A stretch of DNA of 64,000 nt from Candidatus Magasanikiibacteriota bacterium (GTDB lineage Bacteria > Patescibacteriota > Patescibacteriia > Magasanikbacterales > GWA2-37-8). The notes under the pieces are model-generated. The model was not told the origin of the DNA, did not search any database, and worked only from the letters and a program-made list of their open reading frames with translations. Below, piece by piece: positions 7,155-55,219 of the stretch; the first letter of the stretch is position 1; each line of letters begins with the position of its first letter. Where the stretch lies: positions 3,440 through 67,439 of the forward strand of contig JBAYGI010000004.1 of assembly GCA_041666745.1 (NCBI GenBank). Reading direction: 5' to 3'. Both the position numbers and the translations under genes were made by a program.

Positions 7155-7163
7155 GAGGTAAAT

Positions 7164-7199
7164 GGGGGGGGGTGATCAACCATGTGATTACCCCCCCCC
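7164..7199. repeat. G9-N18-C9 homopolymer-flanked hairpin
   Basis: GGGGGGGGG TGATCAACCATGTGATTA CCCCCCCCC read directly, at the right edge of the high-GC island. A second G9 run is at 806-814. Confidence 0.9.
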
Positions 7200-7224
7200 A
7201 GCCTATTCCTTTATTAAAATATTT

Positions 7225-18430: not shown

Positions 18431-21400
18431 ATGCCTGTATTCAAACGCCAAGCACTCAAGGAAAAAGATCGCAAGTTTTTTACGAAAGTAAAAAATACTA
18501 TTCCATTGCCAAACCTAATCGAATTGCAATTGGATTCATACAATTGGTTTGTAAAAAATGGTATTAAAGAATTATTCGAAGAAGTTTCTCCAATTACCGA
18601 TTTCTCCGGAAGAAATTTGGAGCTATATTTTGAAGACTATTATTTGGACGAGCCACGCTTTGATAGCGTGACCTGTAAAAAACGCAACGTTACTTTTGAA
18701 GCCCCTCTACGCATTACCGCTCGTTTGACCAACAAACTAACCGGTCAGAGCAAATCTCAAGAAATTTATTTGGGTGACGTGCCGATGATGACCGAGCGCG
18801 GTACTTTTATTATCAACGGTATTGAACGCGTGATTGTTTCTCAGCTGATCCGTAGTGCCGGTGCTTTTTTCACTGCTCAAAGTGAACGTGGACGTCGTTA
18901 TTATAGCGCCAAAGTTATTCCAAATCGTGGCGCTTGGTTGGAAATCGAAACAGATATCAACAATGCTATTTGGGTAAAGGTAGATCGCAAACGCAAGGTG
19001 GCGGTCACTTCATTATTGCGTGCTTTTGGTTTTGACAATGACGAAGAAATTATCAAACATTTTAAAGATGTAAACAATCATCCAACTATCGACTATATTG
19101 ATGCTACTTTGAAAAAAGATTTGGCAAAAAATATGGACGAAGGTTTGATTGAAGTTTACAAACGTATTCGTCCGGGTGATTTGGCGACTTCTGAAAATGC
19201 CAAAGGTTTGATCCATTCCATGTTCTTTAATTTTGAAAGATACGATTTGGGACGTGTGGGTGTTTATAAATTTAATACCAAATTTGATTTGGCTTCCAAG
19301 TCTGAAGATTATGACAACAAAGAAAATCGAGTATTGTCAGTAGAAAAATTGTTGGCGGTAATCAAAGAAGTAATTCGTTTGAATGTAACTCAAGAAGAAC
19401 CGGATGATGTGGATCACTTGGGCAATCGTCGTATTCGCGCGGTTGGTGAACTTGTACAAAATCGTTTTCGTGTTGGTTTGGCTCGTATGGAACGCATCGT
19501 CAAAGATCGCATGAGCACTTATGAGGTAGATCAATTGGTACCAAACAAAGTTATCAATGCTCGTCCGGTGATGAGTGCCATTCGTGAATTCTTTATGAGT
19601 TCACAGATGTCTCAATTCATGGATCAGCACAACCCACTTTCTGAACTCGAACACAAACGTCGTTTGTCCGCTTTGGGTCCTGGTGGTTTGTCTCGTGATC
19701 GCGCCAGTTTTGAAGTTCGCGATGTGCACACTACTCACTATGGTCGTATTTGTCCGATTGCCACTCCTGAAGGTCCGAATATTGGTTTGGTGAATCATCT
19801 TTCCAGTTATGCTCGTATCAATGAATTTGGTTTTATTGAAACCGCTTATCGCAAAGTATTGCGTGAAGTAAAAAATGACGCCACCTTGACTGAAGGAGAA
19901 ATTTTACGTGGTGATGTCGGTGGTACAAAAGATGGCACCAAAATTACCAAAGAAATCGCTGCCAAATTGGCCAAAGAAAAAATTGCGGTAATTCAAGTGA
20001 AACCACGCGTTACCAATGAAGTGGTATATTTGAGTGCGTTCAAAGAAGAAAAATACACTACTGCTTCTGCCAGAACAAAGTTGGATGAAGATGGTTATTT
20101 CCTAGAAGATTATGTGCCGGCTCGTGTAAATTCAAAACCGGGTGTGGCCAAAACTATTGATTTGGAATTTATTGATGTTTCTTCCGCTCAAATTGTGAGT
20201 GTGGCAACTTCTTGTATTCCATTTTTGGAACATGATGACGCTACTCGCGCGTTGATGGGTACAAACATGCAAAGACAGGCTGTGCCTTGTATTCGTCCTG
20301 AACCTCCATTGGTTGGAACTGGTGTTGAACATGAAGCCGCAGTATATTCCGGTCAGGTAGCTATTGCTGATGAAGATGGTGAAATTACCGAATGCGACGG
20401 ATCTCATGTGGTATTGCAAGGTAAAAAAGAAACTCATACTTATAGTTTAAATAAATTTATTCGCGCCAACGCGGCTACTTGTATCAATCAACATCCGACA
20501 GTAGTAGTTGGTCAAAAAGTAAAAAGAGGACAATTTTTGAGTAACGGTCCAAGTATCGCCGAGGATGAATTGGCACTTGGTCAAAATATGTTGGTTGCCT
20601 ATATGGCTTGGGATGGTTTCAATTATGAAGATGCGGTAATTTTATCTGAACGCGTTGTGCACAAAGACCGTTATACTTCTATTCATATTGAAGACTATAC
20701 TATCGATGTTCGTGAAACAAAGCTTGGACCGGAAGTTGTTACTTCAGATATTCCAAATGTTTCTGAAGAAAAATTAAAAAATTTAGATTCCGAAGGTATT
20801 GTGCGTATTGGAGCTGAAGTAAAATCCGGCGACATTTTGGTTGGTAAAATTACTCCAAAAGGTGAAACCGAATTAAGCGCTGAAGAAAGATTGTTGCGCG
20901 CCATCTTCGGTGAAAAAGCTCGCGACGTTCGTGACTCTTCCTTATATCTGGAACACGGTGAACACGGAAAAGTAATCGGTATTCAAGTATTTTCTGAAGA
21001 AGCCGGCGATAAATTGGAACCGGGTGTAATAAAACAAGTACAGATCACTGTAGCGGATATGCGCAAAATTCAAGTTGGTGATAAAATGGCCGGTCGTCAC
21101 GGAAACAAAGGTGTTATTTCCAAAGTGGTACCTTCTGAAGATATGCCTTTCTTGGAAGATGGCACACCAATCGATATTATTTTGTCTCCACTCGGTGTTA
21201 TTTCTCGTATGAACTTGGGTCAGCTTTTGGAAACTCATCTTGGTTTAGCCGCCAATGCTTTGGGTTACAAAGTAGCCACTCCGGTATTAAACGGTGTGAC
21301 TGAAGAACAAATTTATGGAGAATTGGAAAAAGCCGGTTTGCCACTTTCCGGTCAAGCTCAGCTTTATGATGGACGCACCGGTGAAGCTTTTGATCACAAG

Positions 21401-27890: not shown

Positions 27891-28541
27891 ATGCTCAAAG
27901 TTTTATACGAAGACAATCACCTCGTCGCGGTTTTTAAACCAGCGGGTGTTTTGGTACAGGGCGATGAAACCGGTGACAAATGTTTGATGGATGAGGTGAA
28001 AGAATATTTAAAAGAAAAATACAATAAGCCCGGGCAGGTATTTTTGGGATTGTTACACCGTTTGGATCGGCCGGTGAGTGGAGTGGTGTTGTTTGCCAAA
28101 ACCAGTAAAGGAGCTTCACGATTGTCTGAACAAATTCGCACTCATAAAGTACAAAAAGTTTATCAGGCATTGGTGGAGGGGAAAGTAAAAAAAGAAAGGG
28201 GTACTTTGATAAATTGGTTGAAAAAAGATGAACAAAAAAATAAAGTGACTGTTTTTGATAAAGAAACTAAAGATACGCTTTATGCTGAATTGGATTATAA
28301 GGTTTTAAAATCCAACAGCCAAAATTCATTGTTGGAAATAAATTTAAAAACCGGTCGGCCACATCAGATTCGTTCACAGTTGGCACACATCGGACATCCG
28401 ATAGTGGGGGATCTGAAATATGGAGCAAAAAATGCTTTGCCGGATAAATCTATTGCGTTGTGTGCGGTTTCTTTTACTTTTGAAACGGCGACTGGTGGTG
28501 AAATAAAAACAGCGACCGTGGAGACGCCATTTTTCTTGTAG
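27891..28541 (+). CDS. RluA-family RNA pseudouridine synthase
   Basis: HRLDRPVSGVVLFAKT with catalytic Asp, and KVYQALVEG motif II. Confidence 0.85.
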   Translation: MLKVLYEDNHLVAVFKPAGVLVQGDETGDKCLMDEVKEYLKEKYNKPGQVFLGLLHRLDRPVSGVVLFAKTSKGASRLSEQIRTHKVQKVYQALVEGKVKKERGTLINWLKKDEQKNKVTVFDKETKDTLYAELDYKVLKSNSQNSLLEINLKTGRPHQIRSQLAHIGHPIVGDLKYGAKNALPDKSIALCAVSFTFETATGGEIKTATVETPFFL

Positions 28542-28547
28542 TTTTAC

Positions 28548-28642
28548 GCTCGGTCGCCTATTGCTTTTCGCTTTTTTCGACCGCGAGGTCGAAAGGATGA
28601 GCCTCGGGCTCATAACCCGCTCAAAACAATAGGTGACCGAGC
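28548..28642. repeat. structured palindromic intergenic element, copy 1 (outer 16-bp stem, inner stem TCGACC-gcga-GGTCGA, conserved core with hairpin ATGAGCC-tcg-GGCTCAT)
   Basis: Read directly from the sequence. Followed by a T-run. A 62-nt core is shared with 42641-42733 in inverted orientation. Confidence 0.85.
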
Positions 28643-29337
28643 TATATTTTTTCAAAAAGGGGTTTGTAGATGTCGTCTTTGATGTCTATTTTTAGTTCAT
28701 TGCGATTGACGGTATTGATAAATTCTATAGGGGCATCAGAAATTATTGCCAGCGGTTGTTTTTCTGTGCCTTCGCCCATTACCAATACAGCGGTGGTGGC
28801 TAGGCTGTCGGCGATGTCTGTTTTGGAAACTTTAAATTTTCTGTCAAATAAATCCGGTTTTCCGATGTAATTTTTTATCCCTTTGAACCCGGCATATCCC
28901 ATAGATATGCCCACTACGCCGGCGCGCAAAGGCATGAGGCGACTGTCGGTGATTATTACCCCGAGTTTTTTTAGTTTATATTTTTTGAGTAGATAATCGC
29001 GCACTATTTCGGCGCTTTGGTAGCAATCTTTTGGTAGTAGTATCAATTTTCCATTGGCGTTGGACTCATCGATGCCGGCACTGGACAACACGTCGCCGTC
29101 TTTGATGGTCAGCCAAGCATATTTTGTTTTAATAGCAAAATCACTTTCTTGTCGGATGATTTTTTCTTTATATTTTTCATCTTTCGCCACACAAAACCTA
29201 CCTTCGGATAGGGCGACAATTTTTGAAGTTATTACCACCACGTCCTTATTTTTTATTTGAGGTAAATGTTTGTCCAAAAAAGAAAATAGGTCGCCGTTTT
29301 CTTTGAATAAAGAAGTTTTGATTGGTTGGACTTTCAT
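28642..29337 (-). CDS. CofE-like protein (F420-0:gamma-glutamyl ligase family fold)
   Basis: VVVITSKIVALSEGR and SSAGIDESN match CofE family motifs. 231 aa. Confidence 0.6.
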   Translation of the reverse strand: MKVQPIKTSLFKENGDLFSFLDKHLPQIKNKDVVVITSKIVALSEGRFCVAKDEKYKEKIIRQESDFAIKTKYAWLTIKDGDVLSSAGIDESNANGKLILLPKDCYQSAEIVRDYLLKKYKLKKLGVIITDSRLMPLRAGVVGISMGYAGFKGIKNYIGKPDLFDRKFKVSKTDIADSLATTAVLVMGEGTEKQPLAIISDAPIEFINTVNRNELKIDIKDDIYKPLFEKI

Positions 29338-40784: not shown

Positions 40785-42629
40785 ATGAAAAACTTTTTGA
40801 AAAATTTTATAGCTGTGTTTTTGGTGCTGTTGGTGGTGGCGGGTGTGTTGGGGTTAACTCGATCCAATGCAAGCCAAAAACCGGACAAAGTAGATATCGG
40901 CTGGTTGATTCAAGAAATCAATGCCGGTCAGGTGAAAAAAGTTTCCGTGAGTGGAGATACTATTGATGTAGAATTGAAAGATGCTACCGCCAAACATCAA
41001 GAAGTAAAAAAAGAAACAGGTGAATCGTTTGGTGATATTATGAAAAACTACGGCGTGTCGGATACCGCCCGCAATAGTATCGCGGTGGAAATTAAAGACG
41101 AAAGTGGTTGGAAATTTTGGTTGGTGAATCTTTTGCCGGTGATTATCCCATTGGTTATTATTATGGCATTTTTATATTTCATGACTAGAGGGGTACAAGG
41201 TGCCAACAACAAAGCGATGGGATTTGGTCAGAGTAATCCTCGCCAAGTAGGGGCAGATAATAAAGATAAAAAAACTTTTGCGGATGTTGCGGGTGCAAAA
41301 GAAGCCAAAGAAGAGCTGGAAGAAATCGTAGATTTTTTGAAAGACCCAAAAAAGTTTGCCGACATGGGTGCCAAAATTCCCAAAGGTGTATTGTTGATGG
41401 GTGCTCCGGGTACTGGTAAAACTTTGTTGGCCAAAGCAGTTGCGGGTGAAGCGGGGGTGCAATTTTTTCACATGAGCGGTTCAGAATTTGTGGAAATGTT
41501 TGTGGGTGTTGGTGCCAGTCGTGTGCGTGATTTGTTTGCCAAAGCAAAAAAAGCCGCTCCGGCGATTGTGTTTATTGATGAAATCGATGCGGTTGGACGA
41601 CGTCGTGGTACCGGTATGGGTGGTGGTCATGATGAACGCGAACAAACTTTGAATCAAATTTTGGTGGAGATGGATGGTTTTGAAGCCAATTTGGGAGTAA
41701 TCGTAATGGCGGCCACCAATCGCCCGGATGTTTTGGATCCAGCTTTGTTGCGCCCAGGTCGTTTTGATCGTCGTGTGGTTATCGATTTACCGGACATCAA
41801 AGATCGTGAAGAAATTTTGACAGTTCATGCCAAAGGCAAACCGATAGATAGTACTGTTTCTCTAAACAAGTTGGCTCAACGCACCCCCGGATTTTCCGGA
41901 GCGGATTTAGCCAATCTGTTGAATGAAGCGGCTATTTTGACTGTGCGTCGTGGTAAAAAAATTATTGGAGAGAGTGAAGTTTTGGAAAGTATTGAAAAAG
42001 TATTACTTGGCCCGGAAAGAAAAAATCGAATTATCAGTACACAAGAAAAGAAAATGACTGCTTATCATGAAGCGGGGCATGCGGTGGTAGGGCATTTTTT
42101 GTCGCACTGTGATCCAATTCGCAAGGTGTCAGTAATTTCTCGAGGACAAGCCGGTGGTTATACTTTGCATATGCCAACCGAAGACAAACACTATCGCACA
42201 CTTGCTCAGTTTCGAGATGATTTGGCTATGATGTTTGGTGGTTATGCAGTGGAAAAATTAATTTTTGGTGATGATATGTTGTCGACCGGTCCAAGCTCGG
42301 ATTTGCGCAACGCTACCAAAACCGCCAAAGATATGGTGACTCGTTATGGTATGAGTGAAAAACTCGGCCCACGTACTTTTGGAGAGCATGAGGAAATGAT
42401 TTTCTTAGGCAAAGAAATCCACGAACAGCGCGATTATAGCGATAAAACCGCTGAAGAAATAGACAAAGAAATTAAAGTATTGGTGGAAAATGCTGAAAAA
42501 CGCGCCAACACAATCGTGGTGGCCAATCGTGAAAAAATGGATTTGTTGGTGCAAGAGCTGATGGAAAAAGAAACAATCGAACAAGAAGACATCCTGAGAA
42601 TTTTAGGACCACGCCCTACCGTAGAATAA
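40785..42629 (+). CDS. ftsH: ATP-dependent zinc metalloprotease FtsH
   Basis: N-terminal TM helices, Walker [19 protein letters not shown] zinc motif. Confidence 0.96.
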
Positions 42630-42640
42630 TATTAAAAAAT

Positions 42641-42733
42641 ACCGGCTACAATTACCTTTGAGCGGGTTATGAGCCCGAGGCTCATCCTTTTGCCCTCGCG
42701 GGCAAAAAAAGCGAAAAGGTTGTTGTAGCCGGT
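42641..42733. repeat. structured palindromic intergenic element, copy 2 (inverted relative to copy 1; inner stem TTGCCC-gcga-GGGCAA)
   Basis: Read directly from the sequence. Flanked by an A-run and a T-run. Lies 3' of ftsH. Confidence 0.85.
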
Positions 42734-42807
42734 ATTTTTTGTTTTTCAGAAATGTGCTATAATATATTTAGTCAGGCAAGTTTAATTGCCAATTGTTATT
42801 TGTATCT

Positions 42808-48612: not shown

Positions 48613-49545
48613 GTGGTTATGTCAAAAATCCCCAAAATTGTTGTTATTTTAGGTCCTACGGCGAGCGGAAAAACCAATCTTGGTGTTGTTTTGGCGCGGG
48701 AATTTAACGGTGAAATTATCAATGCCGATTCTAGGCAAGTTTACAAAGAAATGGATGTCGCTACCGCCAAACCACACAAAGATGTAGGGTGCAAAAAGGG
48801 CGAATATGTTTTTCAAGGAATCACGCATCATTTGATGAATATCGTCAAGCCAAATGAGCGATTCACCTTGTCTGATTTTAAAGAACGGGCAAGTTTGGTA
48901 ATTGCCGATATTTTATCTCGTGGTAAATTACCGATAGTGGTTGGTGGTACCGGATTATATATTTGGTCGTTGGTGGATAATTTGGATATCCCAAAAGTAA
49001 AGCCAAATATTAAGTTGCGTAAAAGTTTTGATAAGAAAACTTTGGACGAGTTGGTCAAATTGTTAAAAAATATTGATCAGGCAACCGCTAAAAAAATTGA
49101 TTTAAAAAATCGTCGTCGAGTAATTCGTGCCTTGGAAGTGGCCATTAGCAGTGGTGAATCTTTTGTTGCGCAAACTACCAAATCTGCGCCACTTTATGAT
49201 GTTTTGCAAATTGGTATAAAATGTGACCGGGAAAAACTCTATCAAAATATTAATAGTCGTATTGATCAACAAATGCAATCCGGTCTGGTGGAAGAAACTA
49301 AAAAATTGGCCAAAAAATATTCTTGGGATTTGCCAAGCATGAGTAGTATTGGCTACAAACAAATTGGAAGTTATTTGCGAGGGGAGATGTCGTTAGCAGA
49401 TGCAGTCGAACGGTTCAAGAGAGATACCCGTCGATATGCCAAACGACAAGAGACTTGGTTTAAGCGCGATAAACGAATCGTATGGATACCGTTGGAAGAT
49501 TTTGATGGCGCGAAATTAATTGTTGAGAGGTATCTCGTCACCTAA
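48613..49545 (+). CDS. miaA: tRNA dimethylallyltransferase
   Basis: P-loop ILGPTASGKT and the ADSRQVYKEMDVATAKP motif. Confidence 0.9.
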   Translation: MVMSKIPKIVVILGPTASGKTNLGVVLAREFNGEIINADSRQVYKEMDVATAKPHKDVGCKKGEYVFQGITHHLMNIVKPNERFTLSDFKERASLVIADILSRGKLPIVVGGTGLYIWSLVDNLDIPKVKPNIKLRKSFDKKTLDELVKLLKNIDQATAKKIDLKNRRRVIRALEVAISSGESFVAQTTKSAPLYDVLQIGIKCDREKLYQNINSRIDQQMQSGLVEETKKLAKKYSWDLPSMSSIGYKQIGSYLRGEMSLADAVERFKRDTRRYAKRQETWFKRDKRIVWIPLEDFDGAKLIVERYLVT

Positions 49546-55096: not shown

Positions 55097-55219
55097 GGTC
55101 GAGAGGATATTAATTTTCGCCGCGCGAATTGTTTGAAGTAGCGAGAACCAAAACCGCTGTCTGTCAAACTCCAAATTCGCTACAAGTCTGAGCGCAAGAA
55201 AATTGATATCCTCTCGACC
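55097..55219. repeat. 123-bp imperfect palindrome with 22-bp terminal inverted repeats (GGTCGAGAGGATATTAATTTTC / GAAAATTGATATCCTCTCGACC), followed by two 15-bp direct repeats CCGTAAAATAATTAA at 55218 and 55248
   Basis: Read directly from the sequence. Lies in the divergent intergenic region between the GT4 gene and the MgtE_N/CBS gene. Confidence 0.85.

Follow-up and report, generated by a model that had tools for sequence, protein, structure and literature searches.

The hairpin downstream of ftsH and its counterpart in the window

The window (the whole stretch of DNA that was analysed, 64,000 nucleotides in length) contains two copies of a long structured hairpin. Copy 2, which is the subject here, follows the 3' end of ftsH, whose product was 100% identical to an FtsH of Ca. 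Magasanikbacteria and possessed the Pfam domains FtsH_ext, AAA and Peptidase_M41. Copy 1 lies between two convergent genes, and its folds had z-scores of -7.7 and -8.3 on its two strands. Throughout, the forward strand of the core is the one that reads GAGCGGGTTATGAGCC.

Table 1. Features of the two window copies and their neighbours (window positions)
Feature	Position	Strand	Description
RluA-like gene	27891-28541	+	convergent with the CofE-like gene
Copy 1	28548-28642	core-forward strand -	106.4 bits with covariance model R1
CofE-like gene	28642-29337	-	convergent with the RluA-like gene
ftsH	40785-42629	+	614 aa, from translation; copy 2 follows its 3' end
A-run (AAAAAA)	42634-42639	+	RNAfold stem extends into it
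Copy 2, whole hairpin	42640-42734	+	begins 11 nt past the ftsH stop codon
Copy 2, P1 outer stem, 5' arm TACCGGCTACAATTACCTTT	42640-42659	+	covariance-model columns 1-20
Copy 2, conserved apex, 55 nt	42660-42714	+	from folds and alignment
Copy 2, hairpin 1	42669-42685		AUGAGCC CGA GGCUCAU, lengthened by GGG/CCU with an invariant G.U
Copy 2, hairpin 2	42689-42706		UUUGCCC UCGC GGGCAAA; family UUYNNCC-UCGC-GGNNRAA
Copy 2, junction strand AAAA	42707-42710		part of the three-way junction
Copy 2, P1 outer stem, 3' arm AAAGGTTGTTGTAGCCGGTA	42715-42734	+	from fold and alignment
T-run TTTTTTGTTTTT	42735-42746	+	predicted U-tract of the ftsH intrinsic terminator
Extended -10 box TGcTATAAT	42755-42763	+	of the downstream gene, outside the element; read from the sequence
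Downstream gene, 323 aa	42808-43779	+	followed by a pilB-like gene

The two window copies share a 62-nt core, of which 58 of 62 positions were identical after alignment, and the four differences formed two compensatory pairs in hairpin 2 (UUUUGCCC/GGGCAAAA vs. UUUCGACC/GGUCGAAA). A 28-mer within the core, GAGCGGGTTATGAGCCCGAGGCTCATCC, occurred exactly twice in the window, at 42660-42687 on the + strand and at 28595-28622 on the - strand, while 100 shuffles gave an expectation of 0. The common core and the opposite orientation of the two copies, both proposed in an earlier sequence-only reading of this DNA, were therefore real.

The outer stem of copy 2 (ACCGGCTACAATTACC/GGTTGTTGTAGCCGGT), when paired by position, consisted of 14 Watson-Crick pairs, one T.G and one T.T, and in RNAfold one position was open on the + strand and two on the - strand. 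The stem described in the sequence-only reading was thus present, but the two U-G wobbles that it had assigned to the + strand RNA were one U.G and one U.U mismatch. The folding energy was -59.7 kcal/mol on the + strand (z = -9.3) and -56.1 kcal/mol on the - strand (z = -9.0). Moreover, the upstream A-run and the downstream T-run were found as described; they pair with each other, which gives the hairpin the look of a bidirectional terminator, and a hairpin finder reported a 20-bp stem at 42633-42741. The T-run, which has the form T6GT5, is orthologous to that behind the plain ftsH terminators of two relatives, L025 and L029, which the outermost 8-9 nt of the 5' arm also resemble. The inner part of the arm (ACAATTACC) moves and flips together with the core, as found by comparison of orthologues. 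The -10 box was conserved in L024, L025, L026, L030, and L031, and was not called by a strict sigma-70 scanner. Given that the downstream gene has this box of its own outside the element, copy 2 most probably ends the ftsH transcript and is not the leader of the next one.

Fold, size and distribution of the family

All identified copies possessed the same fold, which is a long hairpin of which the tip is a Y-shaped three-way junction of 55 nt. The outer stem P1 is locus-specific and evolves rapidly with its pairing kept; it ranged from 16 to 30 bp, and the whole element from about 95 to 125 bp. The apex starts with a 2x2 internal loop of tandem G.A/A.G, followed by a closing stem of 2 bp GC and the three-way junction that bears hairpins 1 and 2. 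In the alignment of 22 copies (A2), 20 were without indels. Standard pairs were found in 87.5% of the pair cells, vs. 71.8% in shuffles, and at most 51% of the cells were paired when the partners were slid along the alignment. Helix 1 (the P1 arms plus the 2-bp closing stem) had changes on both sides in 19 of 22 pairs. Hairpin 2 was paired in 22 of 22 copies (100%), with covariation in 4 of its 7 pairs, and hairpin 1 of L023 contained compensated indels with its pairing kept. In L022, the 2x2 G.A/A.G loop was replaced by two Watson-Crick pairs. Finally, the junction G.U beside two G-C pairs was invariant in 22 of 22 copies, and G.U pairs were more frequent on the core-forward strand than on the other strand, in both the outer stem (22 vs. 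9) and the core (3 vs. 0). The compensation in the stems could partly reflect templated quasi-palindrome correction and not selection. Two further structural ideas were dropped. The GNRA loop of the reverse strand (hairpin 2 loop GCGA or GUGA) seemed to argue for that strand, but it is offset by the forward G.U bias and the G.A/A.G loop. A pseudoknot between GCGGG and the loop of hairpin 2 was rejected, as the loop variants of L009 and L010 were without a compensating change.

The family comprises about 25 copies at about 13 independent loci, which were sorted by their flanking proteins. Exact-pattern scans identified 10 genome and 12 metagenome stretches, which gave 20 unique copies with the two of the window included, and covariance model R1 extended this set by five (L023, L024, L026b, L030, and L009b, which is degenerate). 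The scans required an identical hairpin 1, so that the conservation of this hairpin is partly an ascertainment effect; its variation was visible in L023, L030, and L009b, and copies with a changed hairpin 1 could be reached only via the neighbourhoods of homologous proteins. L009b (L009 381-476; L017 3432-3527) scored 46.5 bits. A canonical copy is found about 0.9 kb away, and the two flank one rmlD-like gene. L009b shows that copies of the family can decay. The neighbours of the family are unrelated housekeeping genes, including ftsH, rpoD/murG, rmlD, ychF, dnaE/relA, miaA, and dnaX, and copies occur about once per 30-80 kb.

All copies were located on contigs of the Magasanikbacteria type. 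Spread to Gammaproteobacteria was considered and rejected, as the two MAGs titled "uncultured Gammaproteobacteria", CAZXEV01 (L008 and L033) and CAYZHG01 (L002, L003, and L009), carry syntenic genes of the Magasanikbacteria type. Among these are an FtsH with 97% identity to that of L016 and the gene order gyrA-femAB-L32-nusB-rnc, and the label or binning of the two MAGs is doubtful. As a separate observation, gyrA of L026 (2211-5852) contains an intein (Pfam Intein_splicing) and encodes 1213 aa vs. 822 aa in the others.

At the gathering score of Rfam 15, no family except three tRNAs was matched in the window, and nothing credible was found over 42580-42800 up to E = 10. Searches by blastn against 50,697 phage and 72,556 plasmid records identified no match, the family had no match in IMG/VR, and nothing relevant was found in the literature on CPR repeats. 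It is a previously undescribed repeat family in Magasanikbacteria. Inspection by eye also led us to drop a hammerhead, of which the core CUGANGA ... GAAA was absent on both strands, as well as resemblances to twister, kink-turn and T-loop. A REP-like family of stems was rejected as well, for the other terminators of the window have unrelated stems. Two further hairpins of the window were seen in passing. Between divergent genes at 55097-55219, a near-perfect 22-bp stem (GGTCGAGAGGATATTAATTTTC/GAAAATTGATATCCTCTCGACC) surrounds a structured interior of 79 nt (z = -9.3 as RNA, + strand); it had no match in Rfam and no second copy in the DNA searched. At 7163-7200, a hairpin has G9/C9 arms (TGGGGGGGGGTGATCA ACCATG TGATTACCCCCCCCCA).

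Terminator context, gain and inversion at orthologous sites

On 24 of 28 gene-sense sides, at least five T were found in the eight positions after the stem, whichever way the core was oriented, and an A-run was often present on the opposite side. The outer stem thus appears to behave as the intrinsic terminator of the upstream gene, and its terminator function is independent of the orientation of the core, in line with the sequence-only reading. In one-directional contexts, about 8 loci have the reverse strand of the core in the mRNA and 2-3 loci have the forward strand; the remaining copies lie between convergent genes. Given that the forward strand is in the mRNA at only 2-3 such loci, copy 2 represents the minority orientation. 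A fixed orientation relative to the upstream gene, which had been suspected from copy 1, was rejected, as both orientations occur in one-directional contexts. Similar to ordinary intrinsic terminators, copy 2 (42640-42734) possesses a GC-containing stem and a T-tract (TTTTTTGTTTTT) just past the gene. Different from them, its loop is the 55-nt three-way junction and not a loop of 3-8 nt on a compact stem. This explains why a terminator scanner called no terminator at either window copy.

The gene order ftsH, 323-aa gene and pilB was syntenic in eleven relatives. With the window counted, the ftsH site was filled in six cases and plain in six. The core is forward in the window and L023 and reverse in L030, L024, L016, and L008. 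Of the plain sites, L025 (GCCGGCAACA-ATC-TGTTGCCGG) and L029 (CGCCGACAAT-TTGTAGTC-ATTGTCGGTG) have a terminator that, in its stem, T-run and downstream promoter, is homologous to the window outer stem and its surroundings, and L026, L031, L027, and L028 have an unrelated terminator. In a neighbour-joining tree of FtsH, built from the sites other than L008, L030, and L031, the filled L023, L024, L016, and the window formed one clade with L026 as its sister, and L025 and L029 were further out. The sequence-only reading had suggested that orthologous ftsH 3' regions be compared for an empty site, and the plain terminators of L025 and L029 do look like one; they could equally be copies that lost the tip.

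By FtsH identity, L030 was the closest relative of the window among the matches listed (89% overall). Its copy has the opposite orientation, yet its inner stem is ACAATTACC as in the window, and both copies have an identical G.T wobble when read in the core frame. Thus, the flipped unit includes at least 9 bp of the inner stem, and at least two flips occurred in the ftsH clade. A second orthologous site with flipped copies was found at ychF (L002 vs. L022). At both the ftsH and ychF sites, inverted repeats surround a segment that was seen in both orientations, each in different genomes.

At the site of copy 1, 100 nt separate the stop codons of the CofE-like and RluA-like genes in the window, compared with 1 nt in L032 and 5 nt in L033. 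No hairpin was found between the convergent genes in the latter two, and the extra DNA of the window was exactly the hairpin plus CGTAAAA; the whole stem of copy 1 was therefore gained together with the core. Similarly, L009b, with its own stem, separates two co-directional genes whose spacing in L007 is 1 nt, and L026b, at the miaA/CLIPPER junction, has its own stem, to which the plain terminators of L025 and L027 at this junction are unrelated. The three filled/empty junctions of copy 1 and L009b lacked a visible target-site duplication. Moreover, stems were shared among non-orthologous loci: the identity of the 5' arms was 18/20 for L005/L026b, 17/20 for L026b/L002, and 16/20 for window copy 2/L013, where the median between loci was 7/20. 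The gaps at copy 1 and L009b together with the shared stems indicate that the whole hairpin is the gained unit. The stem of L013 (dnaE/relA junction) was most similar to the ftsH terminator of L029, which is why L025 and L029 may be copies with a lost tip.

The sequence-only reading had proposed that the core inserted into existing terminator hairpins. At the ftsH site, the homologous stems of L025 and L029 agree with this proposal, but at copy 1, L009b, and L026b the stem came together with the core. As a general rule the proposal fails, for outer stems are also common to non-orthologous loci and the flip includes at least 9 bp of the stem.

Several observations on these junctions are recorded here in their own right. 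The heptamer CGTAAAA lies directly 3' of the outer stem, in the core-forward frame, in four copies from three independent loci: window copy 1 (28543-28549, - strand reading), L007, L009/L017, and L009b. On the opposite strand, this is TTTTACG just 5' of the hairpin, and it may be a subfamily end or a target motif. The TTTTAC(G) motif is not general and is absent in the other subfamilies. In the window, the convergent miaA gene and the gene for a 614-aa CLIPPER-type protein overlap at their stops (TTAA, 49516-49545) with no terminator between them. In L028, the same junction (20310-20495) contains a different, larger nested Y-shaped hairpin with no match in Rfam, of which the tip consists of AUGGCCCUA-AGGG-UAGGGCCAU and GUCCCGAC-UAA-GUCGGGAC and the outer stem, ATACCGTACAATTTTCACC, is similar to that of window copy 2. 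It points to a broader class of terminator hairpins with decorated tips. The palindrome GTCCCGAC TAA GTCGGGAC was found at unrelated places in two genomes (L028 437-453 and 20402-20420; L013 2308-2326).

Sequence constraint, explanations and known systems

Between orthologues, 44-60% of the 4-fold degenerate sites of ftsH differed. The outer stem changed at 15-40% of positions in the ftsH set and at 2.5-58% over all orthologous comparisons, and the three central pairs of hairpin 2 at up to 6 of 6 positions, always with compensation. The 17 junction and loop bases had 0-1 changes in 14 of 17 comparisons; the exceptions were L010/L014 with 2 and L022 vs. L002/L015 with 3-4, the latter being the most distant comparison (flanking-protein identity of 50-76%). 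Between the window core and that of L016 or L008, 0 of 55 positions differed, although the window copy is forward and the L016 and L008 copies are reverse. For the same pairs, 15-16 of 40 outer-stem positions differed, as did 54% of the ftsH 4-fold sites between the window and L016 (ftsH of L008 is partial and gave no value). Among non-orthologous loci, the outer arms differed by 62% on average vs. 9% for the core; common arm sequence was limited to the innermost 6-10 bp (RTTRYC...) and to two subfamilies. Decay was seen in L030 and L009b. Identical cores of the window and L016 in opposite orientations mean that the constraint is independent of the transcribed strand. Such a constraint points to the DNA rather than the mRNA level, and to either a single-stranded or cruciform form of the DNA or recurrent replacement by active copies that come from a constrained pool.

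Comparisons of orthologous junctions showed the gain of the whole hairpin within a few bases between neighbouring genes, and the inversion in place, between the arms, of the tip with at least 9 bp of inner stem, which would leave the terminator unaffected. We therefore regard it as an even call that copy 2 belongs to a low-copy, mobile and flippable family of nested-palindrome repeats that doubles as terminators in the Magasanikbacteria lineage. Such a family might spread at the DNA level via a single-stranded or cruciform (hairpin) intermediate, the invariant tip might be recognised by a trans-acting, structure-specific enzyme such as a HUH/Y1-type transposase or a recombinase, and the flips might result from recombination or replication template-switching between the arms, as in plastid hairpin loops. 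A tblastn search of 334 kb with IS608 TnpA, which is a weak test, gave no hit at E < 0.1, R1 detected neither half-elements nor longer elements with these ends in about 370 kb, and no recombinase domains were present among the called neighbour genes. Two further features count against a mobile repeat. Conservation is highest in the centre and lowest in the arms, where a classical MITE would have its terminal inverted repeats; in addition, the high conservation in place (0-1 of 17 unpaired bases changed outside the most distant comparison) fits a host-functional RNA or DNA site, while a selfish passenger should decay, as seen only for L009b and L030. A more speculative extension, to which we give little credence, is that a structure-specific CPR mobility system, so far undescribed, uses the Y tip as its recognition module and copies flippable "portable terminators" into gaps of 1-5 nt, or else that the tip is a new functional ssDNA/RNA motif under strong purifying selection in either orientation.

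The near-invariance of the junction and loop bases outside the most distant orthologues also suits a host-functional structured RNA in 3' UTRs with the outer stem as its P1, for example a cap that binds a protein or protects the 3' end, or a terminator under ligand or protein control. Its stems covary, the junction G.U is kept in every one of the 22 copies, the G.A/A.G loop gives way to two Watson-Crick pairs in L022, G.U pairs are in excess on the core-forward strand, and the folds have z-scores of -8 to -9. However, at one-directional loci the mRNA mostly contains the reverse complement of the core (about 8 vs. 2-3), the forward core of the window equals the reverse core of L016, and an RNA module that depends on its sequence cannot function in both senses. 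Its presence is also patchy among close relatives with no tie to any gene class, and it matched no Rfam family, so that we consider such an RNA unlikely. Mobility may also be confined to a core of about 62-75 nt that enters the loops of existing terminators, which then supply the outer stem. The terminators of L025 and L029, which share stem, T-run and downstream sequence with the window outer stem and fall outside the filled clade of the FtsH tree, are as expected under this explanation, as is the unrelatedness of most outer stems (the mean non-orthologous difference of 62%). It has difficulty with copy 1, L009b, and L026b, gained with stems at sites that in relatives are free of a hairpin or contain an unrelated one, with the stems shared by different loci, and with the nearness of the L013 stem to the L029 terminator, for L025 and L029 may have lost their tips; we find it quite improbable. 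Finally, a site-specific invertase that flips the tip between the arms, and so changes what the transcript or the DNA presents, would account for the two orientations that close relatives have at orthologous sites, including the two or more flips of the ftsH clade, and for the flanking inverted repeats of 17-30 bp. Such an inverton is nevertheless very unlikely: the segment that would invert spans only about 75 bp and contains no promoter, no invertase gene was seen beside any copy, no case of both orientations in one population was found, and passive flip-flop of hairpin loops is known to proceed without an enzyme (PMC6342102).

If copy 2 is part of a mobile terminator family, it is of interest for CPR/Patescibacteria, whose genomes are tiny, tightly packed and thought to be poor in mobile elements. 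A ready-made terminator hairpin in gaps of 1-5 nt would show the acquisition and turnover of terminators, and a selfish element that pays its way. A near-invariant 55-nt fold with free orientation separates constraint at the DNA level from that at the mRNA level and provides a good starting point for identifying its recognition protein. Moreover, the family can mislead screens for RNA motifs, as it has strong covariation and z-scores and is probably no conventional RNA gene, and its flips are a homoplastic character that is unfit for phylogeny.

REP/BIME/REPIN, MITEs (Correia, ERIC and RUP) and the bcr repeats of Bacillus are short, non-coding palindromic repeats at the 3' ends of genes, often in convergent gaps. 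They form long hairpins when transcribed, can act as terminators or substrates of RNase III, and range from few to many per genome. Similar to them, the family described here is short, non-coding and extragenic at the 3' ends of genes, forms long hairpins and varies in presence and absence at orthologous sites. Different from REPINs and MITEs, the centre of the hairpin is conserved and the arms vary: the palindromic arms with a 5' GTAG-type motif and the variable loop of REP/REPIN sequences were replaced by the opposite pattern, and the terminal inverted repeats of MITEs were not conserved across copies. In addition, no target-site duplication (at the copy 1 and L009b junctions), no family-wide terminal repeat, and no parent IS (in about 370 kb searched with R1) or RAYT (in 334 kb searched with IS608 TnpA) were found, and the copy number is low, at about one per 30-80 kb. 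No curated covariance model of Rfam 15 was matched. The ends, inspected by eye, do not fit the RYYYAAC/GTTRRRY boxes of attC sites, and the conserved part is the centre.

Similar to intrinsic terminators, the copies have a GC-based stem followed by a T-run, often with an upstream A-run, directly after stop codons; their branched "loop" of 55 nt, however, contrasts with the usual 3-8 nt, and their stems of 16-30 bp are much longer than usual. IS200/IS605-type transposons and the gene-less PATEs use DNA hairpins, make no target duplication and insert beside a short specific motif. The TTTTAC(G) that abuts the hairpin in one subfamily recalls the target rules of IS200/IS605, but the motif is missing from the other subfamilies and no TnpA was found in 334 kb. 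Moreover, the left- and right-end hairpins of IS608 are alike, whereas the two hairpins here differ. In plastomes, hairpin loops flip-flop recurrently between inverted repeats of 18-19 bp (PMC6342102, which cites Kim & Lee 2005 for such minute inversions). Similar to these, a short segment between inverted repeats of 17-30 bp was found in both orientations and is homoplastic; the plastid loops, however, are 5-9 bp long and unconstrained, whereas the segment here is about 75 bp long and highly conserved. Thus, a conserved centre with variable arms, gain of the whole hairpin without duplication, and conservation regardless of orientation set this family apart from REP/REPIN sequences, MITEs and intrinsic terminators.
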